Counted from the stretch's first letter, positions 1,146 to 57,610 are shown. The stretch is DNA of 64,000 nucleotides from a virus (IMGVR_UViG_3300036770_000877:32001-96000); one strand, 5' to 3'. Made by a program: numbers and translations. Notes: a model not told the origin generated them from the sequence alone.

Positions 1146-1171
1146 ATGCTAATTATCCCAGATTTTCGATC

Positions 1172-1931: not shown

Positions 1932-1967
1932 AAAAAGACAAGACCCCCACCATTTCTGGAGGGGGTC
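1932..1967 (-). terminator. Intrinsic terminator after major tail gene
   Basis: GACCCCC..GGGGGTC stem followed by a T-rich tract on the minus strand. Confidence 0.7.
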
Positions 1968-1986
1968 GAGCCAATTTTGGTTAAAT

Positions 1987-2658: not shown

Positions 2659-2742
2659 TTATTTAATTTCACCTCCTCCTTTTTATAGGATATAAAGTTT
2701 TGCGGCATTTCCTCAAATCCAATAATACTTGAACTGGGGTTA

Positions 2743-5350: not shown

Positions 5351-5357
5351 TAATTAA

Positions 5358-5756
5358 TTAGGAGTAAAACTCCTGTACCTCCTTGGGAGTGGCAAGTCTG
5401 AAACCTTCCTGTGTGTCAAAAATCTCCTGTGCGTCCTTCTCGGACATTACGATAAATGGATTTTCTTTTGTAAATGTAAACTCATTTACATCATATCTTG
5501 GATTCATTCTTTCCATCTTTACTAAGACTTGTCCACCTTTAAGCTCTGTTAGTGGCTTTGATCCCGTTGTTTTTCTTGGTTCTAAATCTGCTTCTGCTTT
5601 TTCTGCATTATTAAAACTATTATACATTTCGTAGCTTACGCCCTCTTCTGCGAGTAGGGCAACTAGGTCTGCCTTATTTTTGGCTGACTGGTGGTCTACC
5701 GCAAAATCTTCTGCGACCTTTCGAAGCTCTTCAAGCTTCATATTACTAAAAGACAT
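5358..5756 (-). CDS. Hypothetical head-associated protein with N-terminal Rho-N/SAP-like helix pair
   Basis: MKLEELRKVAEDF..KNKADLVALL; located after the capsid gene. Confidence 0.55.
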   Translation of the reverse strand: MSFSNMKLEELRKVAEDFAVDHQSAKNKADLVALLAEEGVSYEMYNSFNNAEKAEADLEPRKTTGSKPLTELKGGQVLVKMERMNPRYDVNEFTFTKENPFIVMSEKDAQEIFDTQEGFRLATPKEVQEFYS

Positions 5757-5800
5757 TTATTCTCCTCTCAGTCTTTTCCTTCTAATTATAGCACCCATAT

Positions 5801-5839
5801 GACTAAAGGGGAACCCCTTTTTGGAGTTCCCCTTTAGAC
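5801..5839 (-). terminator. Stem-loop terminator after major capsid gene
   Basis: CTAAAGGGGAAC / GTTCCCCTTTAG inverted repeat. Confidence 0.7.
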
Positions 5840-5859
5840 TATTTAGTTTTTAAAGGTTG

Positions 5860-6846: not shown

Positions 6847-6879
6847 TTTTTTATTTTTCACCTCCGTTATTTTTATAGA

Positions 6880-8190: not shown

Positions 8191-8231
8191 AGCAACACTA
8201 ATTTTATCAACTATTTGTTAGTAATGCAAAA

Positions 8232-9803: not shown

Positions 9804-10132
9804 TAGTCGTTCCTCAAATTCTTTAGGCTATCTTTGTACTCACCAATATCCAGTGGATCTGGTGTTAGTCCCCACTTCAACCTCTGTTGCTGTTCTTCAT
9901 ACTCTTCATCGTTAATCTTTCTTTGTCCCGACAAAAATACTGCTTGGCCTGTTTGAATGCCATAACCTTTGATAGCTTCGGTAAGAGCGTTAATTCTATT
10001 TTGGTCTCCCTTAAATGCAGAAACTGATAAATAGTTTCCATTATCATCGCCTACCCAGCGTCCGTCTGGCATTTGCCACACATAAACCCCTAATCGGGTT
10101 TCTTCAACAATAGATGTTTTAATTGATTTCAT
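9803..10132 (-). CDS. Hypothetical protein upstream of portal
   Basis: 109-aa ORF coupled to the portal; -10 TATCAT 6 nt before the ATG. Confidence 0.7.
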   Translation of the reverse strand: MKSIKTSIVEETRLGVYVWQMPDGRWVGDDNGNYLSVSAFKGDQNRINALTEAIKGYGIQTGQAVFLSGQRKINDEEYEEQQQRLKWGLTPDPLDIGEYKDSLKNLRND

Positions 10133-10192
10133 ATAGTAATGATACCATCTTTTATTGCAAATAGCCAGAGTTTGTAATAGAATATGCCAAAA

Positions 10193-12637: not shown

Positions 12638-12651
12638 AATATTCCCTACTA

Positions 12652-12855
12652 CTAAGCTAGAACAGCTGTTATTTGAGCTTGCTTTTCTGCAATTGAAGCA
12701 TTGAGCTCAGCAATCTTATCTGAGTCAGGAGATGTCTTTGCATTTTCTGCAATTTTTTCTACCTCAAGTGCGTACATCTGGTATTCAAGACTTCTTGCAG
12801 CCGCCTCTTGGATAGCTGTTTTTTCGTCTTCAGTTAGTTTTGTGTATGTTGGCAT
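12652..12855 (-). CDS. Small helical hypothetical protein
   Basis: 67 aa; GAAAGGAGG RBS. Confidence 0.65.
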   Translation of the reverse strand: MPTYTKLTEDEKTAIQEAAARSLEYQMYALEVEKIAENAKTSPDSDKIAELNASIAEKQAQITAVLA

Positions 12856-12885
12856 TTTTCCTCCTTTCCAAATTATATCAGTATA

Positions 12886-13065
12886 TTATAAATCTGACAA
12901 TAGGTCTTGGCACACCTGCTTTTTTAATATAGCATCGTCCAATATTAACCTATTTGATTCTTTATCAGGGCCAACCTCATCTGCATATGGGGTAAGCCTT
13001 TCTATTAAATCTTCTAGTCTCTGTATTTCAGATAACAAGAATTCTGTTTTATCGCTTATGTTCAT
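12886..13065 (-). CDS. Small hypothetical protein
   Basis: TAATG coupling to the upstream gene. Confidence 0.55.
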   Translation of the reverse strand: MNISDKTEFLLSEIQRLEDLIERLTPYADEVGPDKESNRLILDDAILKKQVCQDLLSDL

Positions 13066-15101
13066 TATAGCCACGCAGTATAACTTGAGTAGGAAGAGTT
13101 TCCTGCAGAGTTAGTTGCTCTTGCCCTCCATCTAGCATAAGAATAAGTTGAGCTATTTCTTGTAACTGTTTTTGTTCCGCTTCCGCTTACGCTACCAGAA
13201 GCAGAAGCTTCAACGGTAGAGGTATTGGAATCAGAAAGTTGTAGATCCCAGTCATAACCAGTTGGTGTTCCACCAGAACCCTGGTTAATTGTAAGAGTCC
13301 AAGTATAGTATCCGTTTATGTATCCATCATAATTATTTGACACCGACGGTACCCCAGGAGTTGTAACTGCAGATGTTGTAGATGCAGTAGCTGGACCAGA
13401 CCAAGCGGAAGTTCCCCCTGGACCAACTGATCTAACCCAAACATACCATGTTGTTCCAGATGCTAAACCACTAATTGTTTTAGATGTACCAGTTTGATTA
13501 AAATCTACATAACTTCCTGGATTATAGTTGGTGCTATTATAGTAAATATCATATGAAGTAGTATTAGCCATTGCATTCCAAGATGCCGTTATTGAAGATG
13601 TTCCTCCAGAAGATGCACTTAGTCCAGTAGGAGCGCTTGGTGCTGGTACTGGATATGTTCCAGAACTTGTTCCAGTTCCGCTAGTAGCATCAGACAAACT
13701 AAGGCTACTTGATCCAGATAGTGTTCCAGCTAACGAGGCCCCCGTTGTATAAGCAGTAACTGAAGAAACAGATATATTAGTTCCAGCAAGTGTCAGGGAG
13801 TTTCCATTCACCTGTTGACTTCCAGAAGATCCATCTGCAACATAACTAACAATATAATAAGAAGCTCCACTAGAACTTGTCCAAGATATCGTTGCCTGCT
13901 TATTTGTATTTACTGCATAAACTCCTACAGAGTAACTGCTACCTGGTGTTGCTCCCCAGTTATCATTTGTAACATATCTAGCATTAGATCTGTATCCTTC
14001 TGAACCGCCGCTGATATAAGAAAAATAATAACTAGCATTAGATGTAGCATTCCAGGTATAACTAACGTTGTTTGAGGCAAATGTTAGTCCAGAAACTGAT
14101 GGTGTACCAGGAGTTGCTGTAGCATTTGATATGCTATAAGTAAAAGCACTTAATGTTGTAATTGTTGCAGTTGAGCTATAAGTATATCCAGATCTTTTAT
14201 CTGAAGTTGCTACAGAATACTGTACTGCGTAACCTTGATAATTTGTCGATCTTGGTGCAATTGTATAAAAAGTTGTAGACGAGTTAGCGTTGGTATAAAT
14301 TTCCGTTATTGTTTGACCAACTGAATACCCAGATGCCGAAACAGTTTTCCAAGGGGATCCCGATCCAAAAGTACCAACCCAAATTTCATATGAAGAAGCT
14401 CCAGCTACATGCTGCCACTGAATAATAACCTGCCTGTTTGAATTAACAGATCTAATACCTACTTGAACATTTCCAGCCGTACCAGTTCCAGAATATGTTC
14501 TATTTATTTGATCAAAGCTAGATATAGAACCGTTAGTTGTAGTATATTCATAAGCGGTTGTATTTGCGGTTGCTGACCATGATCCAGAGTAGGTACCCGT
14601 CCCAGTACTAATGCTTACAGAACTTGGAGAGCTTGGTGTAATTGTATAATCATAAACTGTTGCGGATGCAAGATATGGCAACTCTATAACTGATGTAGAA
14701 ACTGTAATAGGTGTTTGACCTCTACTGTTTGTTGCTGTTATGGTTACTGAAATAACTGTTTCAACATCATCTGATGTAGTTGTATACGTTTGAGATGTTG
14801 CACCAGATATATTTGCGCCATTTCTTTTCCATTGATAAGAGTATGAAGTTGGATTATATGCATCTTCATTTCTCCAAGTACCGCTACTAATTGAATAAGT
14901 TGATCCTAGTCTTCCTATAGAACCAACTGTAGCCACTATAGATGGGTATACAATTATGGATGGGTATTCTGGATAATTAATCTTCCATGAAGATCCATTC
15001 CAAATCCATCCTCTTACGGCTTTTTTAAATGTAGAATTGTTATAAACATTTAATTTTATTGCTTGCTTAAAATCTGAACCATTGTATATTTTTAAAGCCA
15101 T
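13065..15101 (-). CDS. Ser/Thr-rich virion protein with Ig-like and fibronectin type III domains
   Basis: YSYQWKRNGANISGATSQTY (Ig); PSAPTGLSA..SITASW..ISGLASGTTWYVWVRSVGPGGTSAWS (FN3). Confidence 0.8.
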   Translation of the reverse strand: MALKIYNGSDFKQAIKLNVYNNSTFKKAVRGWIWNGSSWKINYPEYPSIIVYPSIVATVGSIGRLGSTYSISSGTWRNEDAYNPTSYSYQWKRNGANISGATSQTYTTTSDDVETVISVTITATNSRGQTPITVSTSVIELPYLASATVYDYTITPSSPSSVSISTGTGTYSGSWSATANTTAYEYTTTNGSISSFDQINRTYSGTGTAGNVQVGIRSVNSNRQVIIQWQHVAGASSYEIWVGTFGSGSPWKTVSASGYSVGQTITEIYTNANSSTTFYTIAPRSTNYQGYAVQYSVATSDKRSGYTYSSTATITTLSAFTYSISNATATPGTPSVSGLTFASNNVSYTWNATSNASYYFSYISGGSEGYRSNARYVTNDNWGATPGSSYSVGVYAVNTNKQATISWTSSSGASYYIVSYVADGSSGSQQVNGNSLTLAGTNISVSSVTAYTTGASLAGTLSGSSSLSLSDATSGTGTSSGTYPVPAPSAPTGLSASSGGTSSITASWNAMANTTSYDIYYNSTNYNPGSYVDFNQTGTSKTISGLASGTTWYVWVRSVGPGGTSAWSGPATASTTSAVTTPGVPSVSNNYDGYINGYYTWTLTINQGSGGTPTGYDWDLQLSDSNTSTVEASASGSVSGSGTKTVTRNSSTYSYARWRARATNSAGNSSYSSYTAWL

Positions 15102-44208: not shown

Positions 44209-44230
44209 TGTCAGACCCCTCTGCTAGACT
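44209..44230 (+). promoter_or_regulatory. PafBC/RecA-NDp-type promoter (first of 13 exact copies)
   Basis: TGTCAG-N10-TAGACT. Confidence 0.75.
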
Positions 44231-44279
44231 TTAGTCATAGAAAGTTGATAAAGGTTATCAACAAAGAAAGGAAAACAAA

Positions 44280-44492
44280 ATGTTTTCACTAAGTTATAAA
44301 ATTCAATCAAAGTCCGAAAGTAATGTGTTCGGCACTTGTCTAGGTGTCGTGTTCGATACCGAACAAAAGGCTTGGTCATATCTTGACCTAGTAGAAAAGG
44401 ATAACTACATCCTTGAATGTAATCTAAAAGAATTAGAAAACTACAAGCCTAGCAAGCGTGTAGTATTCGCTACTACTAGAAGTTGGGAGTAA
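44280..44492 (+). CDS. Early hypothetical protein
   Basis: AGAAAGGA RBS. Confidence 0.7.
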   Translation: MFSLSYKIQSKSESNVFGTCLGVVFDTEQKAWSYLDLVEKDNYILECNLKELENYKPSKRVVFATTRSWE

Positions 44493-44496
44493 TTCA

Positions 44497-44697
44497 ATGA
44501 ATGAACAAACTCTACTAACTAAAATGGGTTTCTCTACTCATTCCGCCGTTTCATCTTCTATCGTATCCGATGGGTGGGAGCGTTTTGCCACCTGCTCAAA
44601 ATGCGGTTTAGATATATCTGCCTTTTGGGTAGATGATGAAGACCGCCTTAGCGGTTGGTCATCTTGGAAAGCCACTAGTGGCTTATGCCAGGCGTGA
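44497..44697 (+). CDS. Early hypothetical protein (CxxC)
   Basis: ORF; its stop codon overlaps a CRP-like box. Confidence 0.65.
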   Translation: MNEQTLLTKMGFSTHSAVSSSIVSDGWERFATCSKCGLDISAFWVDDEDRLSGWSSWKATSGLCQA

Positions 44698-44804
44698 TAT
44701 AAATCACATCCAGCTCTCGGCGTGTCGCCTTGATATTGTCGGGAGTATCTGATAGTATTTACATATACAAATAAATAAATAAGAACCTAAAGAAAGGGGA
44801 CAAA

Positions 44805-45005
44805 ATGTCCGCAAATGTATATTCAATCGAAAACCTATTAGTAGGTAAAACCTATCGCTCAAATAGCCTAACAGGTGAAATAATCTCAGCCGAGCCTCAC
44901 CCTAAAGGTGTATGGTATGAGGGTTGCGATTCCTACTTAGTAGAAATCCGTAATGCTAATGGCGGTTATTCTTATCGCACAATAGCGGTAAAGGTAGGTG
45001 AGTAA
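44805..45005 (+). CDS. Early small beta-barrel-like protein
   Basis: AGAAAGG RBS; resembles 47793-48008. Confidence 0.7.
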   Translation: MSANVYSIENLLVGKTYRSNSLTGEIISAEPHPKGVWYEGCDSYLVEIRNANGGYSYRTIAVKVGE

Positions 45006-45007
45006 TA

Positions 45008-45166
45008 ATGAAAATCACTTACTCAATATGGCAGGGCTCTATTATCAAGGGCTCAGGATTCACCGCCTCTAAAATGTCGGAGGTCGCTGATACAATAAAA
45101 GAACTAAACGCAACAGACACTAAACCAAAGTTTGAGGCGTATATTAGCAAAATCGAACAGAACTAA
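45008..45166 (+). CDS. Early hypothetical protein (52 aa)
   Basis: MKITYSIWQG..; below the ORF-track cutoff. Confidence 0.55.
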   Translation: MKITYSIWQGSIIKGSGFTASKMSEVADTIKELNATDTKPKFEAYISKIEQN

Positions 45167-45184
45167 CGAAAGGAAAACTAAAAA

Positions 45185-45349
45185 ATGGAAATACAAATCG
45201 AATTCTCAAAATGGGGTTTTGGTTTTTACTCTGATTTTCTTGCGCTAGATTTTACTTGGGGTTTTCTTGGCTCTCTTGTAGTAATCTATTTCGTAAATAA
45301 AATTCTAAAGCGTAATGAAATAAAATTATTTCGTAAAAGAGTAAAATAA
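45185..45349 (+). CDS. Early small membrane protein (54 aa)
   Basis: GAAAGGA RBS; one hydrophobic segment and a basic tail. Confidence 0.55.
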   Translation: MEIQIEFSKWGFGFYSDFLALDFTWGFLGSLVVIYFVNKILKRNEIKLFRKRVK

Positions 45350-45350
45350 A

Positions 45351-45521
45351 ATGATGACTAGAAAAGACTACATCACCGCTGCGGATATTCTAAATCAAGC
45401 ATATCCAGAAAATCCCGAACTAATTTTAGAGATGGCTTCTGATTTCTCTGATTATTTCGCAAAGGATAATCCTAGATTTTCCCGCCCTCGATTTTTTGAG
45501 GCAGTAAAAAAGGGCTGGTGA
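45351..45521 (+). CDS. Early hypothetical protein (MTRKDY..DNPRF type)
   Basis: MMTRKDYITAADIL..FAKDNPRFSRPRFFEA. Confidence 0.65.
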   Translation: MMTRKDYITAADILNQAYPENPELILEMASDFSDYFAKDNPRFSRPRFFEAVKKGW

Positions 45522-45564
45522 GATAACTCACAAAACTGATCGGCGTGTCGCCTTGACAAATCTG

Positions 45565-45588
45565 CGACACGCCCGACAGCGGCGGGCC
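45565..45588 (+). repeat. 24-bp intergenic direct repeat, copy 1
   Basis: CGACACGCCCGACAGCGGCGGGCC. Confidence 0.95.
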
Positions 45589-45590
45589 TT

Positions 45591-45606
45591 TCGAACAGAT
45601 GTTCGA
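45591..45606. promoter_or_regulatory. Actinobacterial LexA SOS box
   Basis: TCGAAC-agat-GTTCGA, perfect match. Confidence 0.8.
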
Positions 45607-45751
45607 TTTAAGAGAGCCCCAAAATGTGGTGTAAATCACAAAACAAAATGTCCGATTTATCCGATTACTGGTCAGTAAATGTCAGTGGTCTATGGTAGGA
45701 TACTAGGTATCAAGATGAGATAAAGGTTATCTCAAAGAAAGGTGGTCTAAA

Positions 45752-45964
45752 ATGGCTACATTAGAAATATTCGAAATGAACGAAAATGGTGCTGGTTGGG
45801 TATCATTAGAAAATGCTTCACAATCTACAAAACTAGATTTGGAATTAGCAATCATAACAAATGCTCCCGTGCAAATGTTGTGCTTCAAATGTCATACACC
45901 AATTCCAAAAGGAAATGTGTGTTTCAATCATAAAAATGTGAGAGGTGGTATCTACCTTGACTAA
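45752..45964 (+). CDS. Early hypothetical Zn-finger protein
   Basis: CFKC..C..H; AGAAAGGTGG RBS. Confidence 0.7.
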   Translation: MATLEIFEMNENGAGWVSLENASQSTKLDLELAIITNAPVQMLCFKCHTPIPKGNVCFNHKNVRGGIYLD

Positions 45965-46063
45965 AGATGTTTTTGGATTTGAAAATGCAATTCAATTAGA
46001 CCATTTAACTTTAGAAGAGTTAAAAGAATTAGAAAATATTTTAGAAAAAATAAAATAATTTTT

Positions 46064-46136
46064 GGTGCGTTAGATTAGTGGTTAAATCACTACACTGTCA
46101 CTGTAGAGATCATGGGTTCAAATCCCATACGCATCG
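46064..46136 (+). tRNA. tRNA-Asp (GTC), CCA not encoded
   Basis: Cloverleaf: acceptor GGTGCGT/ACGCATC, D arm GATT/AATC, anticodon arm CTACA-CTGTCAC-TGTAG, T arm ATGGG-TTCAAAT-CCCAT. Confidence 0.9.
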
Positions 46137-46143
46137 CTAGCTG

Positions 46144-46167
46144 CGACACGCCCGACAGCGGCGGCCC
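46144..46167 (+). repeat. 24-bp intergenic direct repeat, copy 2
   Basis: CGACACGCCCGACAGCGGCGGCCC (one mismatch). Confidence 0.9.
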
Positions 46168-46176
46168 TGTGGATAA
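46168..46176. promoter_or_regulatory. DnaA box
   Basis: TGTGGATAA = reverse complement of TTATCCACA. Confidence 0.5.
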
Positions 46177-46216
46177 CTTTGTCAATACGACACGCCGTAA
46201 AAACGCTGGAAATTTT

Positions 46217-46265
46217 TGTGATTTCTAACACAATGTGACGCACAACACATGTGATGTGGCTCACA
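46217..46265. promoter_or_regulatory. Three tandem CRP-type boxes
   Basis: TGTGA-N6-ACACA (46217), TGTGA-N6-ACACA (46234), TGTGA-N6-TCACA (46250). Confidence 0.75.
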
Positions 46266-46350
46266 ATGTCCGATTTATACCTATTTTCGGCGGGAAAATG
46301 TCAGTCCCCCCTGCTAGAATTGTGGCATAGAAAAAAGAAAGGATAACTAA

Positions 46351-46479
46351 ATGAAAATTTGTTGCTTCTGCGAAATTGACTTAGATAATGACGCTAAGTT
46401 TTGCTGGAATTGCCTAGAGTATAAAGGCGTAATGTCCGTTGAGGATTTTGAAAAATACTATGGAGAAAGGATTTCCTAA
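46351..46479 (+). CDS. Early small Cys-rich protein (42 aa)
   Basis: CCFC..CWNC; AGAAAGGA RBS. Confidence 0.55.
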   Translation: MKICCFCEIDLDNDAKFCWNCLEYKGVMSVEDFEKYYGERIS

Positions 46480-46670
46480 TGTCAGATTATCTTGATTATC
46501 TAGATGAAATCTACGAGGAACTCGTAGACGAATTCGGTCATGAAATTGAAAGTAATTGTATTCATGACTAAAATGTGAGGTATCTCACACCGACACTAGG
46601 GGCTAAATCCCCCAAAATGTCAGCCCCCAATGCTAAAATTGTATCCATAAAATAAAGAAAGGAAGTCAAA

Positions 46671-46853
46671 ATGACTTACACGATTAGACTAGAAACCTTC
46701 AATGGTTCAGTATCCAAAATCAACCTACCTTCTAAAGGTGCGGTTGCTCAATTCATCAACACTTATCCAAATCAACTCCCTGTCGGTATTTCCGTCAAGT
46801 TTGATTGCGACTTGCTCGGTGTTCGTGGTGTTCTAAAAGGAAAGGGAAAATAA
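46671..46853 (+). CDS. Early hypothetical protein
   Basis: AGAAAGGAAG RBS. Confidence 0.7.
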   Translation: MTYTIRLETFNGSVSKINLPSKGAVAQFINTYPNQLPVGISVKFDCDLLGVRGVLKGKGK

Positions 46854-46854
46854 A

Positions 46855-47046
46855 ATGGAACTTTCTACACTAAATAAAATCAGCGATTTATTCAAGCAAC
46901 TAGAGGAAAAAAGATTTCCTAATAGTTCATCAAATAGCACGACCTCAATGGCTCGACAAATCGGCACAATGTCGGTTTTCGTTTCAGAAAAAAATGCTAA
47001 GCAAATAATTAAAATGTTAGAAAGAGAAATTGGAGAAATTGAATAA
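46855..47046 (+). CDS. Early hypothetical protein
   Basis: Coupled ORF. Confidence 0.6.
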   Translation: MELSTLNKISDLFKQLEEKRFPNSSSNSTTSMARQIGTMSVFVSEKNAKQIIKMLEREIGEIE

Positions 47047-47197
47047 TGAAAAAAAATGTTTTAATCTCGTATGTTGTAGAGGCTGATACCGACCTATCCG
47101 CTATCTTTGCTTTACAAAAATCCCTGCGCTATTTACCTGATAGCGAATTAATTAAGTTTGACGCTTTCGAAGTTCTAGAAGTAAAGGAAAATAAATA

Positions 47198-47467
47198 ATG
47201 ATTAGCACCGCTCTAAAAATTCAAGACGCAACACAAAAAGCCGTTATGGATGAAAACATAATGAAAATGGCAGGCTTTATTTATACTCATAGAAATGATG
47301 TTGATGACGAAATGATGGCTAAAATCATTTTTGAATATTCCGCAAATTTATCTGCTCTCGTTGCTACTTTGGTAAGCGAAGCAATTTTATCAGAAACCCA
47401 AATGAAAGAAATGATTTCAGAAATCGAAAGTTTTGAAAAAATTTCTAAAGAAGTTTTAGGAGAATAA
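47198..47467 (+). CDS. Early hypothetical helical protein
   Basis: AAAGGA RBS; TAATG coupling. Confidence 0.65.
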   Translation: MISTALKIQDATQKAVMDENIMKMAGFIYTHRNDVDDEMMAKIIFEYSANLSALVATLVSEAILSETQMKEMISEIESFEKISKEVLGE

Positions 47468-47601
47468 AATGACAACAAATAGAATTTTAACAACGCTGGT
47501 TCAATTAATTTTAGCTGGCGTAACAATTCCACTTTTAATTTTAGCGATTAAAGATTTTAAACACGATCTAAAAAATAGATAGTTTAATTTTCAACTAAAT
47601 C

Positions 47602-47625
47602 CGACACGCCCGACAGCGGCGGGCC
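47602..47625 (+). repeat. 24-bp intergenic direct repeat, copy 3
   Basis: CGACACGCCCGACAGCGGCGGGCC. Confidence 0.95.
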
Positions 47626-47792
47626 TGATTTGTCCGATTTACGGCATTATGTCCGTTTTGCCAGAATTTCCAGATTTTTTTGTGAAATTTATCACACGAC
47701 ACGCCGTATCAAAATATGAGATTACTTACGAGTAGGTTGAAAAATGTCAGTGGGTTTTGGTAAACTTGTAGGTATAAAGAAAGGAAAAACTA

Positions 47793-48008
47793 ATGCGTTC
47801 ATACTCAATTGTAGATTTGCTAGTAGACCAATACTATGCGCCTACTTCTCTCCGCCGTCGTTTCAACGGAGGTATCATAAACTTTGCGGAAAAGCGTGAA
47901 GATGTCTATTTATCTGAAGGCTATGAAGCCTTCGCTATTCGCTTCCGCCCTACGGGATCTTTTCAAGACCAATGGGCGACAGTTGCCGTCAGGGTTTCCG
48001 ACTACTAA
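47793..48008 (+). CDS. Early small beta-barrel-like protein
   Basis: YSIVDLLV.. resembles 44805-45005. Confidence 0.7.
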   Translation: MRSYSIVDLLVDQYYAPTSLRRRFNGGIINFAEKREDVYLSEGYEAFAIRFRPTGSFQDQWATVAVRVSDY

Positions 48009-48056
48009 ATGTCGGAGGCTTCTGCTAGACTTGTTCTATAAAGAAAGGAAAAGAAA

Positions 48057-48218
48057 ATGTCTGCTATAAAAAGACTAATTGAAAACATACTCGCTTGTGA
48101 TACCTGCTATGGAAAAGGTTTTATGGGTTGGGTTTCTCCAGACGGAGACTATGACTTTGAGTATTGCGATTGTAATCCTCATAACCTAGTTTTGGAAGGA
48201 AGCGAGGTAATTTTCTAA
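48057..48218 (+). CDS. Early Zn-finger protein (53 aa)
   Basis: CDTCYGKG..YCDC; AGAAAGGA RBS. Confidence 0.6.
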   Translation: MSAIKRLIENILACDTCYGKGFMGWVSPDGDYDFEYCDCNPHNLVLEGSEVIF

Positions 48219-48327
48219 TGGAAATTTTTCTCTGCGATAAATGCGATACTCTCGCCCAAGTATCCCGAATTGGTGATACAATAAAAATAACTAAGTGTGC
48301 TTGCCTAGCACTAGATTGGAAAGACTA

Positions 48328-48537
48328 ATGGACTACTTATACTCGCTAACTATCTCCTATGACGGAGAATTGGTTTCAACAACCCGCTCATCGGATTTGC
48401 TAGAAATAGTAAATGCGTGGAATAAATGCGTGGACTTTGGAGATGCTAAAGAATACGCAACCTACAATTTATCAGACCCTAGTGGTAAGATGTATACCAA
48501 GAATTTCTACAGAAATGGAGTAGTAAATGGGAAGTAA
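48328..48537 (+). CDS. Early hypothetical protein
   Basis: TAATG-coupled start MDYLYSL. Confidence 0.6.
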   Translation: MDYLYSLTISYDGELVSTTRSSDLLEIVNAWNKCVDFGDAKEYATYNLSDPSGKMYTKNFYRNGVVNGK

Positions 48538-48805
48538 TCTATCAACCGAACTATCAAGTGGGCTATTGGATTTGGATTTGGAGCAACAGATAACTATTCA
48601 GTTGCGTTCTAATCATTACCCGCCCGTTCCGTATTCAATGGTTTCAGTTTGTATTGAAGCGATTGACGCATACAACGAAGGCGAACACAATAAAGAAATA
48701 ACTTTGCCTGAAGGCGTAAGTTGGCGTGGAAAAAATTCTGCACCTGCTTATTCAATTATTGACGGGCACCACTTGTGGGATTGGATTATCGAAAGCGAAT
48801 TGTGA
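48527..48805 (+). CDS. Early hypothetical protein
   Basis: LRSNHYPPVP..CIEAIDA..HHL.DW. Confidence 0.7.
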   Translation: MGSNLSTELSSGLLDLDLEQQITIQLRSNHYPPVPYSMVSVCIEAIDAYNEGEHNKEITLPEGVSWRGKNSAPAYSIIDGHHLWDWIIESEL

Positions 48806-48842
48806 TCTAAATCATAAAAGCTGCGGCGTGTCGACTTGACAA

Positions 48843-48866
48843 CGACACGCCCGACAGCGGCGGGCC
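48843..48866 (+). repeat. 24-bp intergenic direct repeat, copy 4
   Basis: CGACACGCCCGACAGCGGCGGGCC. Confidence 0.95.
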
Positions 48867-48947
48867 TCAAATGTCCGATTTATGAGCTTTAAGTAGAAAC
48901 GCCGAAATTTTGTGGAATGTCAGTGGGTTATGCTAGACTAGTTTATT

Positions 48948-49082
48948 ATGAGAAAGAAAACGACTGAGGAATTACGGCGACTAATGGAGTTGCGCCGTAG
49001 TAATGCAGCCACGCCTGTAAAAAATAAAAAGGCGTATTCTCGCAAGCGCAAGCATAAATGTCGCCCCTATGGTGTAGAATAA
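48948..49082 (+). CDS. Basic 44-aa peptide with ArfA-like C-terminal motif
   Basis: ..LRRSNAATPVKNKKAYSRKRKHK; ATG 8 nt after the -10 of a PafBC-type promoter. Confidence 0.55.
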   Translation: MRKKTTEELRRLMELRRSNAATPVKNKKAYSRKRKHKCRPYGVE

Positions 49083-49104
49083 AATAAAGAAAGAAAGGTG
49101 CCCC

Positions 49105-49824
49105 ATGAAACTAAAACGCTCTAATGATAGAAAGGTTGCAAATGCAGTCTCAAGAAATGGAAAAACCCCAACAATTGCCAACACTTTTGGATTGCCTGCT
49201 GGAAAAGACTTCTCGTGTCCTGGTGCCACTAGTGTTTGTGAAAGCGTTTGCTATGCAGGAAAACTCGAAAGAGTATACAAGGGAGTAAAGGCTGTCCTGC
49301 TGCATAACTGGGAACTCCTACGCAATGCAGATATGGAAACAATGTCTCTATTGATTGATGAGATGATTGTTGACTTTGTTGCAGATTGTGAGAAAAAGTC
49401 TGCAGATAAATTATTCCGTATCCACTGGGACGGTGATTTCTTCAATGACACTTACGCATACGCATGGAAGGCTGTTATTGCTAATCATCCCGACGTACAA
49501 TTTTGGGTATACACTCGTGTAAAGTCTGCTGCTCTAATTCTAAAAGATATTCCTAACCTATCACTCTATTATTCTACTGATGATGAGAATAAAGAAATTG
49601 CTCATGAACTAAAACTAAATGACGGTATTCGCCTTGCTTATCTAGGAAAAACTTTCGCTGTCACCGAAGACAAAATGAAAGAACTAACTGGCAAGCCTGG
49701 TGCAAAATGCCCTGAGAATGCAAAACGTATTCCGTTGATTTCAACTAACGGTAGCGCATGCGTGTCATGCGGTCTATGCGTTTATGGTAAAGCAGATATT
49801 CGATTTAGCGCAACTAAAAAATAA
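49105..49824 (+). CDS. Gp88-like protein (Fe-S/radical-SAM-like Cys cluster)
   Basis: CPGATSVCESVCYA, FRIHWDGDF, FWVYTR, C-terminal CP..CVSCGLC. Confidence 0.75.
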   Translation: MKLKRSNDRKVANAVSRNGKTPTIANTFGLPAGKDFSCPGATSVCESVCYAGKLERVYKGVKAVLLHNWELLRNADMETMSLLIDEMIVDFVADCEKKSADKLFRIHWDGDFFNDTYAYAWKAVIANHPDVQFWVYTRVKSAALILKDIPNLSLYYSTDDENKEIAHELKLNDGIRLAYLGKTFAVTEDKMKELTGKPGAKCPENAKRIPLISTNGSACVSCGLCVYGKADIRFSATKK

Positions 49825-50185
49825 GGAGAAAAATGAAACTATACAATGCATACATGGCCCTGTACTTAGGAAATGAAGAACAACAACAAGCTGCACAAGA
49901 ATATCTCGACTCCTTGGAAGAATTAAAAGAAGAGGACCAGGAGTAATTGGGTTACGTATTTGTAGCTTTATCTGTTGGGATCTTCTTGGTCCCCGCCGCT
50001 ATAGTTTATTTACTATATAAGAAAAGCTGAGGCCCGCCCCGCATAAAGCGATTTGTCAAATTACGACACTGTGATTTTTCCCACAAAAGTTTTTGAGAAA
50101 ATGTCCGATTTGACCCATTTCTAAGTTGCGCTCTGTCGGTCTGAAATGCTAAACTATTATTACCAACAAACGAAAGGAAGCAAAA

Positions 50186-50335
50186 ATGGCTAAGACACCA
50201 AAAATCGGTGAAACCATTACAACTGCTCAGAGCAAAGTTTCTGGCGTTGTAAAGGAAGTCGTAAAGAACCCATCTGGCTCGGTGCGTGTTCGTCTTGATG
50301 TAGAGGGCGAAACTCGCTGGACTACTATCAAGTAG
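50186..50335 (+). CDS. Early small SH3-like protein (49 aa)
   Basis: KIGETITTAQSKVSGVVKEV..RWTTIK; resembles 50948-51130. Confidence 0.6.
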   Translation: MAKTPKIGETITTAQSKVSGVVKEVVKNPSGSVRVRLDVEGETRWTTIK

Positions 50336-50350
50336 TTTATCAGATAAAAC

Positions 50351-50381
50351 TGACCTGAGCAAGTCAATGCTAAACTGCTCA
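50351..50381 (+). ncRNA. H-type pseudoknot element (second copy)
   Basis: TGAC-CTGAGCAA-GTCA-ATGC-TAAACTGCTCA. Confidence 0.5.
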
Positions 50382-50442
50382 CCAAGTTTATTCTGTCGGT
50401 GTGGTCTGATAGAATAGTAATACCAACTAAGAAAGGAAAAAA

Positions 50443-50865
50443 ATGGCAAGAAACGGCAAGGCGATAAATGTAAAAATCGCTACAACCAAAGTAATCAAGG
50501 CACTTGAGGGTGCGTTGGCTAAATTGGAAACTGAGTATGCTTCACAAGAAGCAAACGAGGCTAAGTATGAAAAGGCTCGTAAGGCTTGGGCTAAAGAAGT
50601 GGGTAAGTTAGCACTTGCTCAAATCTCAAAGGCAGAGAACCTAACTGCTTCTAAACGCTACAACAACGAGGTAAATGTTGATTTCAACTTACCTGCTGGA
50701 ACTATCGTTCTACCTGATGAACCTAAAAAGGATTTCACCACAATGAACGAGTGGAACTATCGTGAGCAGAAAGAGGAAATTGAGAACGCTATTCGTATTC
50801 TCAAGATGACCGACGAGGAAGTCGTTTCCACTTCAACTTACAACGCTATCGCTAGATACTTGTAA
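50443..50865 (+). CDS. Early hypothetical protein
   Basis: AGAAAGGA RBS; 140 aa. Confidence 0.75.
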   Translation: MARNGKAINVKIATTKVIKALEGALAKLETEYASQEANEAKYEKARKAWAKEVGKLALAQISKAENLTASKRYNNEVNVDFNLPAGTIVLPDEPKKDFTTMNEWNYREQKEEIENAIRILKMTDEEVVSTSTYNAIARYL

Positions 50866-50947
50866 TCCTGATGGGGGAGGGGTGTTTGACCTCCCCCACC
50901 AAATCTGATAAACTAAATATAAGCAAACAAAACGAAAGGAAAAACGA

Positions 50948-51130
50948 ATGTCCCCAGTATTCGGAAATAACAGCGATAGTTTCTATCGCAAGGGTGATGT
51001 ATTCACAACTGGCAAGTCAGGTATCACAGGTCGCTTGGAGGAAATCGTATCAGTTAGACCAAATCTAACTAAGATTGCTCTACGCACACCTAACAACCAA
51101 CTTCGCTGGGCAATGGTAAAGATTGGCTAA
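50948..51130 (+). CDS. Early small SH3-like protein
   Basis: GAAAGGA RBS; TTGACC-17-TAAACT promoter upstream. Confidence 0.65.
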   Translation: MSPVFGNNSDSFYRKGDVFTTGKSGITGRLEEIVSVRPNLTKIALRTPNNQLRWAMVKIG

Positions 51131-51488
51131 TCGATAGCCGATAGAAACAGTGGCAGTTTCGGGAATGTTCTCGCCACATGTCTTAAGTAAGAATTCCCAC
51201 CAAATTTCCCCTGGATGATCATGCGGAGTACAAAACAAAAATAGTAGACTCGTCAGAAGACGTCCAGGGGCCCAATTGGGCCACGGTCCATTCGAATGCA
51301 GTCAGCTTGGTTACCTTTCTTTCCAGGCTGGCTGCAAGGCCCGCCCCGCCAAACCACGCTTGTCAAGTTACGACGATGTGATTTTGCCCACTAAAAAATG
51401 TCCGAATTGCCCTAGTTTGCCAATCTAACTAGACATAGCCCACCTATGTATGCTAGACTTGATAAGTATCCAATAGAAAGGAAAAAAA

Positions 51489-52520
51489 ATGGCTACAAAT
51501 CTCGCTCATAAGCAAGAAGTAGAAAACGGCGATGTGTCGTTTGCTCTTGTTGATTCCCGCTCAAATCCTGCTTGGCACTCTTTTGCCAATAAGGTGTTCG
51601 ATTCAGATTCAGGAGATGTTTCAATCTCCGACATAATGAATGGTGCTAAACTATCCAACTGGAATGTCCGTCTTGAAGATGTTGCGCCTCTTGCGCCACA
51701 ACACAATTTCATTACTGATTCATTCCTTGTTGTTCGTGATAACCCAATGACCGATGGTGCTACTGATGTGCTATCTGTTGTCGGTTCTCGCTATAAGGTT
51801 GTTCAGAATGAAGAACTATTCTCATTCGCTGAAAATCTCCACGATGGAAATCCTGATGTAAAGGTTGATTCTGCTGGTTCTCTAAAGCAGGGTCGCATTG
51901 TTTATGGTTCTTGGTCTTTGCCAAATGAACTAATCATTGACCCAAAGGGTGTTGCTGATAAGACAAAACTTTATCTTATCGTTTGGACATCTCACGATGG
52001 TTCTGTTGCTGTTCAAGCAGCAATCACACCTGTTCGTGTTCGTTGCCAAAACACTCTAAACCTTGCGATGAAATCTGCTAAGCAATCTTTCAAGATTCGC
52101 CACACGCAGACCGCAGATGGAAAGATTCTCGCTGCTCGTGAGGCTCTTGGTTTATCTGTTGCTTACTTTGACCAATTCTCAAAGCAGGCTAATGAACTTT
52201 ATCAGGCTTCTATTACCGATAAGCAGTTTTCTGACCTTATCCGTAATCTTTACCCAAAGCCTGAAAAAGACGCTAAGGGTGCGTTGAAGAAGTGGGAAAA
52301 TAAGGTTGTCTTGATTGACGAACTTTATCATAACTCACCAACTAACGCAGGAATCAAAGGCACAAAGTGGGGTGCGCTAAATGCTCTAACTGAGCGTTTG
52401 GATTATTTCCGTTCTGCTCGTAAGGGTAATACGGAATCTCTTTCCGCTTCCGCTTCAGGTTTTGACCCTGTTATCACCGCAGAGAAAAATAAAATTCTCA
52501 AAGCGGTTGTCGCATTGTAA
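51489..52520 (+). CDS. DUF932 (TIGR03299-type phage/plasmid) protein
   Basis: PAWH, VGSRYKVVQNEELF, AGSL..GR, SHDGS..TPVRVRCQNTL, IRHT, GTKWGALNA.TE..D. Confidence 0.9.
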   Translation: MATNLAHKQEVENGDVSFALVDSRSNPAWHSFANKVFDSDSGDVSISDIMNGAKLSNWNVRLEDVAPLAPQHNFITDSFLVVRDNPMTDGATDVLSVVGSRYKVVQNEELFSFAENLHDGNPDVKVDSAGSLKQGRIVYGSWSLPNELIIDPKGVADKTKLYLIVWTSHDGSVAVQAAITPVRVRCQNTLNLAMKSAKQSFKIRHTQTADGKILAAREALGLSVAYFDQFSKQANELYQASITDKQFSDLIRNLYPKPEKDAKGALKKWENKVVLIDELYHNSPTNAGIKGTKWGALNALTERLDYFRSARKGNTESLSASASGFDPVITAEKNKILKAVVAL

Positions 52521-52528
52521 AATGCTAC

Positions 52529-52559
52529 GGGGGCGCAGAAATGCGCCCCCTATTTTTTT
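52529..52559 (+). terminator. Intrinsic terminator
   Basis: GGGGGCGCA-GAAA-TGCGCCCCC followed by TATTTTTTT. Confidence 0.85.
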
Positions 52560-52714
52560 GATCTAAAGCTCGGCGTGTTGATTTGACAAAACAAGTTTTG
52601 CGGGGCGGGTCTGACTGTTTATTTTATCATTACGTCACAAGTTAAAAATGCCCTGGAATTTGCAGGATGTCAGTCCCATGGTGTAGTATTGTATTAAGGA
52701 TAGAAAGGTAGATT

Positions 52715-52924
52715 ATGAGTTGGCAATTAGAAGCCAGTTGCAGCGAGGACCAGCATGACTTGTTTTTCTCGCAGGCTAAAGGTAAAATGGATAGAGCAAT
52801 ACAAATTTGTGGCTCGTGCTCTGTAAAGGGTGAGTGTCTTAAGTTTGCTATTGATGAAAAAGTAGAGTTCGGCATATTCGGTGGTCTCACACCGCAAGAG
52901 AGGAAAAAGAAATGGCTGATATGA
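52715..52924 (+). CDS. whiB: WhiB-family Fe-S transcription factor
   Basis: W..EASC..DLFF..AIQICGSCSVKGECLKFA..FGIFGGLTPQER. Confidence 0.92.
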   Translation: MSWQLEASCSEDQHDLFFSQAKGKMDRAIQICGSCSVKGECLKFAIDEKVEFGIFGGLTPQERKKKWLI

Positions 52925-53145
52925 CAGACGACCTATTCTCAGATAGAATAGGAGAACATATTTTAGGTGCTATTCAAGTAGATATCGAAGAGCAACTATT
53001 TGAAGATTGGAATAACTCTAATCTAGATGAAGGCAATCTTTATGCAGAATGGAGATTTTTTGAATTCGCTACACCTGAAATCAAGAAACAATACAACGAG
53101 CACTACGGATATACAGAAGAGGATGAGTATTACTTATCATGCTAG
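52912..53145 (+). CDS. Acidic hypothetical protein
   Basis: ORF with RBS. Confidence 0.65.
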   Translation: MADMTDDLFSDRIGEHILGAIQVDIEEQLFEDWNNSNLDEGNLYAEWRFFEFATPEIKKQYNEHYGYTEEDEYYLSC

Positions 53146-53312
53146 GTTATACTGCAGATGATGTTGAACGTATGATTAATGCGGTTCATGATTCTAAATT
53201 ATTTTATCTTAGATACCCGTCAGACTTAATTGATAAGTCACAGTTACGTGCAGATCTAGAAGATACGGTCAGCTTTTTACAAGGTGTACTAGCCGAGGGG
53301 CACGTCCAATGA
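53139..53312 (+). CDS. Hypothetical protein (57 aa)
   Basis: MLGYTADDVERMI..FLQGVLAEGHV. Confidence 0.55.
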   Translation: MLGYTADDVERMINAVHDSKLFYLRYPSDLIDKSQLRADLEDTVSFLQGVLAEGHVQ

Positions 53313-53571
53313 GCACTAGACATAAACAGTGTACACAATGCTATAATGGAAAGTATTACTTTTACAATGGTAAAGACGAACTAGTCGCTATCCCGTGCCC
53401 ATTTTGCTAGGAGATAAAATGAGTAAAGAGTTTAAAGAACTTGTTGGAAAAGGCATTCTAGGTTTTTTGGGCCTAGGTGCCATAGTTATATACGTTATCT
53501 ACAAAATATTTGTGGCCTAAGTCACACCTATATTCGTTGAATTTGTCCCCGTTAACTGTTAGGATAGATAT

Positions 53572-53781
53572 ATGGAAAAACTAATAGAATATATGAATAT
53601 ACATCTTGTCAGTCTTCTGCAAGATTTAGAATCTTTGGAAGAACAAATGGAGCGATTGGATATGAACTCTAAGGACTTTATTGAGTTAGACTTTGAATTC
53701 AATAATATCTCAGGGCAAACCATTGCTACCCGCCACCTAATGTCAGTTGCTCGTGATATCCTAGAAGAACAGAAAGGATAA
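53572..53781 (+). CDS. Hypothetical protein (leaderless)
   Basis: TTGAAT-17-TAGGAT, ATG 6 nt later. Confidence 0.65.
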   Translation: MEKLIEYMNIHLVSLLQDLESLEEQMERLDMNSKDFIELDFEFNNISGQTIATRHLMSVARDILEEQKG

Positions 53782-53783: not shown

Positions 53784-54065
53784 ATGATTGAATCAGCCGA
53801 GGCTATCGAACCACGCTTACAGAAACTAGTTGATTTGGGTTGCACTGGTATTGACATAATGCACGGGGAACTCAAGAATCTTATGCTTGAAGCAGAGCAG
53901 GAATATTCTAACTATGTAAAGATTGAAGAAGAAACTGACTATGATGACGCTATGGATTCTATGGAGCGTAAATATTGGGAGGGCATGCTAGACGCATACT
54001 CCCACATGTATAAAATGACCTACGACCTATCGTTTGCTATTAGTGCTAAGGAGGCAGGAGAATGA
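53784..54065 (+). CDS. Hypothetical protein
   Basis: AGAAAGGA RBS. Confidence 0.7.
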   Translation: MIESAEAIEPRLQKLVDLGCTGIDIMHGELKNLMLEAEQEYSNYVKIEEETDYDDAMDSMERKYWEGMLDAYSHMYKMTYDLSFAISAKEAGE

Positions 54066-54666: not shown

Positions 54667-54858
54667 ATGACTGAAACAACCCTGGAATATGTGTTAACAA
54701 ATAATGATAGATGTGACCGTTGTTCTGCCCAAGCTTTATATTTATGCAAAGGTATTACGGGTGAGCTAATGTTTTGCGGTCACCATTTCAATTCAAATAA
54801 AGAATCATTAACTAACTGGGCTTACGAGATCGTAGACGAGTCCTCTAAAATTTCTTGA
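54667..54858 (+). CDS. Small actinobacterial-type Zn-binding protein
   Basis: DRCDRCSAQA..GELMFCGHH motif, resembling small actinobacterial host proteins. Confidence 0.7.
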   Translation: MTETTLEYVLTNNDRCDRCSAQALYLCKGITGELMFCGHHFNSNKESLTNWAYEIVDESSKIS

Positions 54859-54883
54859 CAATCCGCCCTGAATTTTCTATAAT
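54855..54883 (+). promoter_or_regulatory. Consensus sigma-A promoter
   Basis: TTGACA-17-TATAAT. Confidence 0.85.
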
Positions 54884-55062: not shown

Positions 55063-55827
55063 ATGCCAAATTGGGTATATAACACTTTGACCATACAAGG
55101 TCCTAAAGAGGAAATTGATTCAATTAAAGAAAGATTGAATCGTCCTTTTACACTAGCGCAAGAGACATTCGGAATGGGCGATATTAGTTCATCTGGATTC
55201 CCGACTAAAATCACACAGGTAAGTTATTCTAATCCTGTATTTTCATTTCATAATATCCATTCGTATAAGGACGAAGGCATTACTGATGAAGAGTATGCCT
55301 GCCAGCCTGACCGTAGTGGTGTAGATATGAATGACCCTGACTGGTTCCGCAAGTCTGTTGAGTTTGCTAAAACTCAAAAGGATTGGTATTCATGGAACAA
55401 CTCCAACTGGGGCACCAAATGGGATGTCGCAGTTCGTGATGATGACGAATATCCAAATACTGAGTTACTTGAGTATAAGTCAGAGGGTCATGACAACTGG
55501 CTTGTATACAAGTACGAGACTGCTTGGTCACCTGCAGTAACTATCTTAACTAAACTATCTAACTTGGTTCCTAACTCTCTCCTTACACTGGAGTATGAAG
55601 AGGAACAAGGTTGGGGCGGAGAACTAGAAATTCTTCGTGGTGATGTTAAAACAATTCTAGAATATGAAACTCGTTGCTATGCATGTCAATCTTATGACTG
55701 TGTTGAGTATTGTGAGAATGACTGTGGTCAATTCTGCTCTGAATGCAATGAGGGTTCATGGCGAGATGAAGAAGCAATGGCAGAATGCGAAGAGCACAAG
55801 CCTTTACTTGAAAAGGTAGAGGTGTAA
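55063..55827 (+). CDS. DUF1281/YubB ferredoxin-like domain protein
   Basis: MPNWVYNTLTI.G, WYSWN..NWGTKWD, YETAWSP, LEYEEE.GWGG; Cys-rich tail. Confidence 0.8.
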   Translation: MPNWVYNTLTIQGPKEEIDSIKERLNRPFTLAQETFGMGDISSSGFPTKITQVSYSNPVFSFHNIHSYKDEGITDEEYACQPDRSGVDMNDPDWFRKSVEFAKTQKDWYSWNNSNWGTKWDVAVRDDDEYPNTELLEYKSEGHDNWLVYKYETAWSPAVTILTKLSNLVPNSLLTLEYEEEQGWGGELEILRGDVKTILEYETRCYACQSYDCVEYCENDCGQFCSECNEGSWRDEEAMAECEEHKPLLEKVEV

Positions 55828-56480
55828 TGTTTGACCAAAGCTTTACGTCAACCAAGCACACATTTGTCTGTGACCCAGACGAATGTGACACCTTGGTGGA
55901 AATAACTACTTCAGACAAGTTTGGATTCCCTTCTGGATGGATCCATAATACATGTCCCTGCGGTAGACAAATGTCACTGATATCCAGTACAATAGAAGAA
56001 AACCCAACTATAGAAAGGCACCAACCCATGGAATCAACAACTACGGTCCCTGAGACCTATAATGCAAATCTTCTTGTAACATATAAGAAGATTGAGAATG
56101 GCGAGACATCCTTCCCAGTCATCAAGGTAAATGACCTTGAATGGACCTTGGAGCAGGCCCGCCGCACAGATACCCGTGCAAACAATCTGCAGTCGACAAT
56201 TAATAAAATCATTGATTGTTTAACTGAAGACCACTGGTTTAATCCAAACACAGAACTATCAGACGTCCTAGAAGAACTGTGCGAAATCCTTAACCACAAC
56301 CCAGTTAAGACTGTAACGTGGGAGGCCAGCATAACGGTCCGAGGAGAAGTTGAAGTTCCTCTGGCTGAATTCGAAGACTTCGATTTAGATTCTCATATTT
56401 CTGAGAACTTAACTATTGACTCATATGACGGCAATACCACAATTGACACATATGATGTTGACTATGTAACTGAGCGATAA
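55827..56480 (+). CDS. Hypothetical protein with N-terminal Zn ribbon
   Basis: CDPDEC..CPCG. Confidence 0.7.
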   Translation: MFDQSFTSTKHTFVCDPDECDTLVEITTSDKFGFPSGWIHNTCPCGRQMSLISSTIEENPTIERHQPMESTTTVPETYNANLLVTYKKIENGETSFPVIKVNDLEWTLEQARRTDTRANNLQSTINKIIDCLTEDHWFNPNTELSDVLEELCEILNHNPVKTVTWEASITVRGEVEVPLAEFEDFDLDSHISENLTIDSYDGNTTIDTYDVDYVTER

Positions 56481-57253: not shown

Positions 57254-57610
57254 GTGGGAGCAAGATGTACGTTCGTATTTAAAACAGATGAGAATCATGC
57301 AGTGGCATTGTATAGCCATTGGGGTGAAGATTCTCTCTATGAAGATTTAGCCGCAGCATTAAATCATGCAAAGCCTAGATGGTCTGACCCATCGTATGGC
57401 ACCCGTATGGCAATTAGTTATCTAATGCAGGATAGCATTTTAGATGAAACGGGATTCGGGATTTATGGATGTGACCCATCAGACCAGGGATTTATGGATA
57501 CACCAATCACAATTGATTTTACAGATAATACTGTAGGCAATGGGGAGGATTGGCATTCCTTTGAAGAGTTTGTTAATTATCATGGGAATGTGTTAGTTAA
57601 ATCCAGTTAG
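57254..57610 (+). CDS. Hypothetical protein
   Basis: GAR..F..VALYSHWG..RWSDPSY..ETGFGI; AAAGGAG RBS. Confidence 0.7.
   Translation: MGARCTFVFKTDENHAVALYSHWGEDSLYEDLAAALNHAKPRWSDPSYGTRMAISYLMQDSILDETGFGIYGCDPSDQGFMDTPITIDFTDNTVGNGEDWHSFEEFVNYHGNVLVKSS

Follow-up and report, generated by a model that had tools for sequence, protein, structure and literature searches.

Candidate PafBC-type promoters arrayed through a small-gene block in a family of probable freshwater actinophages

The middle promoters of phage T4 combine a MotA box at −30 with a sigma-70 −10 element and rest on sigma appropriation by AsiA and MotA. Another form of phage regulation is seen in CTXphi, coliphage 186 and GIL01, where phage or prophage promoters are controlled by LexA through SOS boxes. 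Sigma adaptation of the PafBC type has so far been known only as a host DNA-damage response. The level of PafBC is unchanged on stress (PMC6789036), its activation is by single-stranded DNA (ssDNA) (PMC6789036, PMC11804915), and its in vivo consensus is tGTCgg(N10)tA(N3)T, in which PafB contacts −23 to −28 and a canonical −10 is present with no −35 (PMC8635444). Here we examine a stretch of 64,000 nucleotides (the window) that comprises bases 32001-96000 of a 104.5-kb metagenomic virus record in IMG/VR (IMGVR_UViG_3300036770_000877, ~85% complete) and that carries, ahead of a series of small genes, thirteen exact matches to the PafBC promoter pattern TGTCRG-N10-TANNNT. The best reading of these sites, and in our judgement a reasonably probable one, is that they are promoters at which host PafBC is used together with host RNA polymerase (RNAP) containing sigma-A. 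Full-text searches turned up no published report of phage promoters of the PafBC type.

The pattern TGTCRG-N10-TANNNT occurs 15 times in the window, always on the + strand, against a mean of 0.97 and a maximum of 4 matches in 100 dinucleotide-preserving shuffles, and 13 of the 15 matches fall within 44.2-53.8 kb. The remaining two, at 35285 (antisense to late genes) and 43220 (within an open reading frame (ORF) and without a proper TG), together equal the chance expectation. The both-strand pattern count proposed in the original prediction, a note made from the sequence by a model, was run on the entire contig and gave 15 forward matches and 1 reverse match, compared to 1 forward and 0 reverse for a reversed control pattern. 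All thirteen coordinates given in that prediction are exact + strand matches:

44209..44230, + strand: PafBC-type promoter 1, TGTCAG-N10-TAGACT with TG, weight-matrix score 31.3; then gene 44280-44492 (70 amino acids, aa)
44737..44758, + strand: PafBC-type promoter 2, TGTCGG...TAGTAT with TG; then gene 44805-45005 (66 aa)
45075..45096, + strand: PafBC-type promoter 3, TGTCGG...TACAAT with TG, within ORF 45008-45166; then gene 45185-45349 (54 aa)
45680..45701, + strand: PafBC-type promoter 4, TGTCAGTGG...TAGGAT with TG; then gene 45752-45964 (70 aa)
46299..46320, + strand: PafBC-type promoter 5, TGTCAG...TAGAAT with TG, top weight-matrix score (34.3); then gene 46351-46479 (42 aa)
46618..46639, + strand: PafBC-type promoter 6, TGTCAG...TAAAAT with TG; then gene 46671-46853 (60 aa) and further small genes
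47745..47766, + strand: PafBC-type promoter 7, TGTCAGTGG...TAAACT with TG; then gene 47793-48008 (71 aa)
48010..48031, + strand: PafBC-type promoter 8, TGTCGG...TAGACT with TG; then gene 48057-48218 (53 aa)
48918..48939, + strand: PafBC-type promoter 9, TGTCAGTGG...TAGACT with TG; ATG at 48948, 8 nt past the −10
50134..50155, + strand: PafBC-type promoter 10, TGTCGG...TAAACT with TG; then gene 50186-50335 (49 aa)
50394..50415, + strand: PafBC-type promoter 11, TGTCGGTG...TAGAAT with TG; then core gene 50443-50865 (140 aa), present in 27/27 relatives
52668..52689, + strand: PafBC-type promoter 12, TGTCAG...TAGTAT with TG shifted by 1; then whiB-like gene 52715-52924 (69 aa)
53741..53762, + strand: PafBC-type promoter 13, TGTCAG...TATCCT with TG; then gene 53784-54065 (93 aa)

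As had also been claimed, each site lies shortly upstream of a gene start and most carry an extended −10 TG: an ATG follows every one of the 13 sites at 8-88 nt, preceded in most cases by the ribosome-binding sequence AAAGAAAGGA, and a TG occupies −15/−14 in 12 of the 13, the exception being 52668. The ORF 48948-49082 (44 aa) behind promoter 9 may be leaderless, and a GP88-family gene (49105-49824) lies downstream of both. When TAnnnT is set at −12 to −7 the TGTCRG hexamer falls at −28 to −23, and a −35-like hexamer (TTGAAA/TTGATA type, 4-5 of 6 positions) is found at 3 of the 13 sites. Three near-matches had been named as well; those at 48470 and 49059 are one mismatch away from the pattern and stand ahead of genes, whereas nothing within one mismatch lies at 53544. 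Taken together, one-mismatch sites do not exceed chance (39 observed vs 29.5 expected), a weight-matrix scan of the contig added no further sites, and the two candidates are not significant alone:

48470..48491, + strand: candidate degenerate site, TATCAG...TGGTAAGAT, one mismatch; gene 48527-48805 behind
49059..49080, + strand: candidate degenerate site, TGTCGC...TAGAAT, one mismatch; GP88-family gene 49105-49824 behind

The phage sites share with PafBC (RecA-NDp, recA P1-type) promoters the hexamer tGTCrg at −28 to −23, the N10 spacing to a sigma-A type TAnnnT −10, the lack of a −35 and a non-palindromic orientation, and on hexamer, spacing, position and −10 type they equal the published consensus, as the original prediction had it (PMC8635444, PMC11804915, PMC6789036). 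They differ in being borne by a phage, in their density of 13 in 9.5 kb, and in standing before small genes without known function rather than repair genes; in addition, they mostly carry A at position 5 of the hexamer, an upstream A-tract, and the extended −10 TG nearly throughout. The same motif also precedes recA in small actinobacterial genomes with PafB/PafC, to which we return below.

WhiB proteins are specific to actinobacteria and their phages. As two members of this family are encoded on the contig, one directly behind site 52668, the host is an actinobacterium, probably of a low-GC freshwater lineage. The mycobacterial setting implied by the original prediction is wrong: a mycobacteriophage identity is ruled out by a G+C content of ~39%, the metagenomic origin of the contig, and related sequences that are freshwater viral contigs. 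The host side was approached by a class-wide search centred on an actinobacterial metagenome-assembled genome (MAG) reached by chance, and the genomes it yielded represent candidate relatives rather than the host itself. Of 301 genomes sampled from one actinobacterial class, 284 have a PafC-type helix-turn-helix, among them genomes of 1.3-1.5 Mb (this tally includes seven unpublished genomes, G007, G015, G024, G030, G032, G036 and G043, used there only), and tandem WYL genes occur in three closed genomes of ~45% G+C (G233, G265 and G280); the proposed check for pafB and pafC thus covered candidate relatives of the host within the class. In G265 the two WYL proteins match M. smegmatis PafB (E 2e-36 over the full length) and PafC (E 6e-30), and the PafB recognition stretch, RMFERDK, is unchanged between G265 and M. 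smegmatis. This stretch would contain the arginine pair, spaced by four, that recognises the GTC triplet, a correspondence that we infer, the deposited chain being numbered with an offset of 2. Ahead of recA, 20 of 21 small actinobacterial genomes carry tTGTCRG(T/A)GG with N10 spacing, often with TG before the −10 and, in lower-GC genomes, with the SOS box TCGAACagatGTTCGg directly after; higher-GC genomes of the host class have TGTCGG at recA. A flank of TGTCAGT[GC], with T at position 7 and G/C at position 8, is common to the phage sites and to host sites driving leaderless genes. Genome-wide, G233, G265 and G280 contain 13-16 motif matches each, about as many as for the control pattern, so the motif is not the general housekeeping promoter.

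In these three genomes, 7-9 PafBC-type motifs per genome cluster in a single island of 20-60 kb (G265:C1:411-432 kb, G233:C1:386-448 kb and G280:C1:431-459 kb; loci L141-L145). In the two islands examined, those of G233 and G265, an ATG lies 6-7 nt past the −10 at most motifs, an arrangement that is leaderless. Genes behind these motifs encode a type II DNA methyltransferase, proteins of the RNase_H_2 superfamily and TPR type, a CAAX/Rce1-like protease and a trypsin-like peptidase, along with several unknowns. The cluster may be a damage-induced defence island or a mobile island.

We assessed conservation of the array in 80 related viral contigs, retrieved by their DUF932 protein (63-100% identical). 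These loci contain 1004 forward and 4 reverse matches, compared to 11 for the reversed control pattern, and the spacer is N10 in 1004 cases, N9 in 8 and N11 in 3; altogether, 1004 of the 1362 forward TGTCRG hexamers in the relatives occupy the promoter register. The logo of 780 distinct sites, in which the TGTCRG hexamer is invariant by construction, reads aAA-TGTCAG-T-S-S..T.TGnTAtAAT. Upstream it holds an A-tract and a weak T (<=0.5 bits), without a −35 of comparable information, and downstream it has a pyrimidine-A step 7 nt past the −10, followed further on by a purine-rich ribosome-binding site; G at position 15, in the extended −10, is present in 83% of family sites. Around 945 distinct family sites, ATGs that open at least 40 codons peak 6-7 nt past the −10 (23 and 19, vs 0-6 elsewhere), which is the geometry of leaderless mRNAs in actinobacteria. 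This pile-up independently supports TAnnnT as a functional −10 from which transcription starts ~7 nt downstream. Two relatives of 45-46% G+C (L285 and L310) have arrays too; most of their boxes are TGTCGGTGG, and several of the genes behind them begin exactly 6 nt past the −10. Array density amounts to 13-20 sites per phage genome, and the 21-kb locus of one relative holds 20. Gene content between 44000 and 58000 turns over fast, with many ORFs found in 0-2 of 27 relatives while the promoters stay constant; the genes that persist as a core are 50443-50865, 51489-52520, 57254-57610, 48295-48537 and 55063-55827. Wider use was surveyed by scanning IMG/VR for pairs of TGTCGG sites, which revealed arrays in this phage family only; the other pairs were tandem-repeat artefacts (L283, L341) or scattered chance pairs.

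With T4 middle promoters the array has in common a class of phage genes served by a normal −10 and by an activator box that replaces the −35 at a fixed spacing (PMC8635444). By contrast, T4 supplies its own activator and co-activator, whereas here none is recognisable and the box equals the site of a host activator. The likeness to LexA-controlled phages lies in gene expression that is wired to a host DNA-damage regulator, and the window does hold one perfect SOS box:

45591..45606, no strand assigned: perfect actinobacterial LexA (SOS) box, TCGAACAGATGTTCGA, 74 nt upstream of promoter 4 (45680)

LexA is, however, a repressor, and the phages named above use it in temperate switches, whereas the present locus has a repeated activator site at many promoters and no recognised lysogeny genes in the window. 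No promoter overlapping the SOS box at 45591-45606 (TCGAAC-N4-GTTCGA) was identified. Of the 80 related loci, 16 have a single CGAAC-N4-GTTCG, in most cases 67-175 nt upstream of a PafBC-type site; three control palindromes gave 0-2 matches in total.

The closest cultured relatives found with two proteins are the Streptomyces phages of the BE cluster (Stanwilliamsviridae, e.g. Jay2Jay): the DUF932 protein encoded at 51489-52520 is 48-50% identical to a protein of the BE-cluster terminal repeats, and NrdJ is ~65% identical to its BE-cluster counterpart. A search of cultured phages for near-identical DNA returned no match. BE-cluster early cassettes resemble the block in comprising many small genes, each with a hairpin, promoter and ribosome-binding site, and in their TAGACT-type −10; in bases 1-14000 of Jay2Jay (L124), the cassette −10 is of the TGTAGACT type. 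They differ in that TGTCRG-N10 is not enriched in Jay2Jay (0 forward and 2 reverse matches) and in that the place of TGTCRG in its cassettes is taken, as judged by eye, by a CCGGACA box and a TTGTAT resembling a −35. Owing to this lack of enrichment, Jay2Jay is unsuitable for studying the trait.

The original prediction had further held that the late genes of this phage use ordinary −35/−10 or extended −10 promoters, and canonical TTGACA-17-TATAAT promoters are indeed present in the window outside the PafBC-type set, two of them perfect and flanking the end of the small-gene block:

54855..54883, + strand: canonical sigma-70/sigma-A type promoter, perfect TTGACA-17-TATAAT, ahead of core genes 55063-55827 and 55827-56480
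57787-57759, − strand: canonical promoter, perfect TTGACA-17-TATAAT

Others that score 11/12 lie at 39798 (+), 42988 (+), 42403 (−) and 12900 (−). Because such promoters stand beside the PafBC-type set, the region has two promoter classes.

We also searched for a candidate regulator among the phage's own products. A six-frame search of the contig found no WYL domain, PafC-type helix-turn-helix or sigma-70 region 2. In a Pfam scan of 36 early ORFs together, with the GP88 and DUF932 ORFs scanned separately, WhiB, DUF7455, an SNase-type nuclease, DUF1281_C (YubB-like), GP88 and DUF932 were above the cut-off, and DUF7230 and a PspC-type ToastRack domain were below it; no DNA-binding family other than WhiB was found among the 36 early ORFs, a scan in which MotA/AsiA models were not searched specifically. 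Structure models of the 55827-56480 and 57254-57610 proteins (pLDDT, a per-residue confidence score, of 67 and 85, respectively) contain no helix-turn-helix and gave no informative PDB fold match, and sequence searches of the PDB and a protein atlas with the 55063-55827 and 55827-56480 proteins returned nothing functional. In the 217-aa protein encoded at 55827-56480, C15 and C20 are invariant and C45 nearly so across 15 relatives (pattern CxxxxC...CxC), which may reflect an N-terminal zinc-binding module that precedes a long helix.

If host PafBC is indeed used at these promoters, host RNAP with sigma-A would read the extended −10 (TGnTAnnnT), and PafBC, always present in the host and switched on by ssDNA, would insert between sigma region 4 and the DNA ('sigma adaptation') and read TGTCRG in place of a −35. 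Transcription would be started or boosted ~7 nt past the −10, and the gene block would thereby be tied to the LexA-independent DNA-damage alarm of the host. PafBC as the reader, infection as the source of ssDNA and early expression of the block are each presumed here, and the 13 sites are probably working promoters of small, early genes for host takeover or anti-defence. This account, which is also that of the original prediction, is the simplest because sequence, flank, spacing and −10 type are identical to those of host recA promoters and because no phage candidate was found. Several points weigh against it. Jay2Jay does not use the motif though its host has PafBC-type regulators, and the IMG/VR arrays all fall within one broad phage family (portal 53-59% identical), a confinement that a family-specific phage factor would fit equally well. 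PafBC may not be required at all, since 12 of the 13 sites have an extended −10, an element that works without a −35 in many bacteria; if it is required, ssDNA must be present when the genes should fire, which we assume. With the contig ~85% complete, an unseen phage gene is possible. Attempts to trace the host were uninformative: a genome-contig scan with NrdJ matched only phage-like contigs binned in MAGs of many phyla, and therefore gave no host information, and a search of 30 actinobacterial genomes with Hsp20 yielded no useful match.

The confinement of the arrays to one family would also agree with a phage-encoded or virion-carried factor of an unrecognised family that recognises TGTCRG at −26 and, much as T4 MotA/AsiA do at middle promoters, redirects host RNAP, with the likeness to PafBC arising by convergence or mimicry of geometry. 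Most early ORFs lack a known family, and the canonical promoter at 54855 stands ahead of core genes 55063-55827 and 55827-56480 (the latter with the conserved Cys cluster), whose products could come first and act on the other promoters. We nonetheless consider such a factor rather unlikely: host recA promoters show the same hexamer, TGTCAGT[GC] flank, N10 and TG-extended −10, and convergence is unlikely to reach that far; the six-frame search gave no WYL, PafC-type helix-turn-helix or sigma match, and the two modelled core proteins offer neither a helix-turn-helix nor an informative fold; moreover, cargo genes vary greatly while the motif is constant.

Alternatively, the extended −10 with its TGn at −15/−14 in 12 of the 13 sites could allow host RNAP-sigma-A to fire alone, the TGTCRG boxes then being PafBC sinks or modulators that divert the activator from the host's damage and defence genes or boost expression under damage. 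The 13-20 sites per phage genome match or exceed the 13-16 (chance included) of an entire small host-class genome, and the motif-driven leaderless genes of the host class cluster in the island with the methyltransferase, CAAX/Rce1-like protease and trypsin-like peptidase described above. A sink, however, would have no need for every box to stand in exact promoter register before a gene with spacing as rigid as at a working activator site, and that PafBC is limiting is an assumption, so we regard this arrangement as improbable. Less probable again is a role for another host regulator or an alternative sigma factor with a TGTC-type half-site, or for the motif in a DNA process instead of transcription. 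The perfect LexA box and the repeated intergenic hairpins do indicate that the spacers carry several kinds of signal, but the −10 is of the housekeeping type, the motif is always oriented with the genes and followed by start-site and ribosome-binding signatures, and we know of no actinobacterial sigma factor that uses a 10-nt spacer.

Were PafBC the reader, this would be the first virus found to switch on its own transcription through a host 'sigma adaptation' activator of the WYL type, and would parallel T4 MotA/AsiA except that the viral contribution would be DNA sites only. Infection would then be directly coupled to the LexA-independent damage response in actinobacteria, including the most abundant freshwater bacteria. 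pafBC has reportedly been linked to mycobacteriophage resistance (Rafique et al. 2025, as cited in PMC12848934). A bolder scenario, which we put forward tentatively and doubt more than we believe, is that a family of freshwater actinophages swapped the −35 for the host PafBC −26 element, that the ssDNA alarm triggers takeover or anti-defence genes, and that tens to thousands of boxes draw PafBC off the promoters of host damage genes and defence islands. These ideas are readily testable, as the promoters are short and a PafBC in vitro system exists, and because the motif is conserved across actinobacteria, model hosts could stand in for the uncultured host of this phage. The motif further offers a simple signature for the early block and for an actinobacterial host in hundreds of uncultured viral contigs.

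The block most likely belongs to a lytic-type phage of roughly 105-120 kb that infects a low-GC actinobacterial host. The − strand of the window from 1 to 39 kb encodes structural genes, many fibre-like proteins and a head maturation protease, and the motif block on the + strand is dense with small ORFs. Landmark genes are:

8232-9803, − strand: portal
5860-6861, − strand: major head protein
46064-46137: tRNA-Asp (GTC) gene, inside the small-gene block and flanked by two PafBC-type promoters

Metatranscriptome contigs from four riverine/aquatic libraries span much of 43-58 kb at 95-99% identity; DNA carry-over is possible, and as these contigs are blind to start, strand and level they were used for no conclusion on transcription. 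Close NrdJ relatives (53-83% identical; L092-L117) sit inside MAGs labelled Saccharibacteria, Bacteroidia, cyanobacteria, archaea and others, and are most likely phage contigs misbinned into the wrong genomes.

At G000:C1:96757-96977 (− strand), just past the end of the window, the sole reverse-strand motif match of the contig (TGTCGGAAATATTAAATAAGCT) immediately precedes the second whiB-like ORF; no ordinary start codon in the whiB frame is found near this match. The DUF932 and DUF1281_C (YubB-like) proteins of the block recall the leading regions of conjugative plasmids. Intergenic modules recur at 45540-45595, 47608-47624 and 44712-44736, and a hairpin GGCGTGTCGC...GCGACACGCC with TTGACA in its loop is followed by a GC hairpin, GCCCGACAGCGGCGGGC, that occurs twice. 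These recurring intergenic hairpins may be terminators between cassettes.

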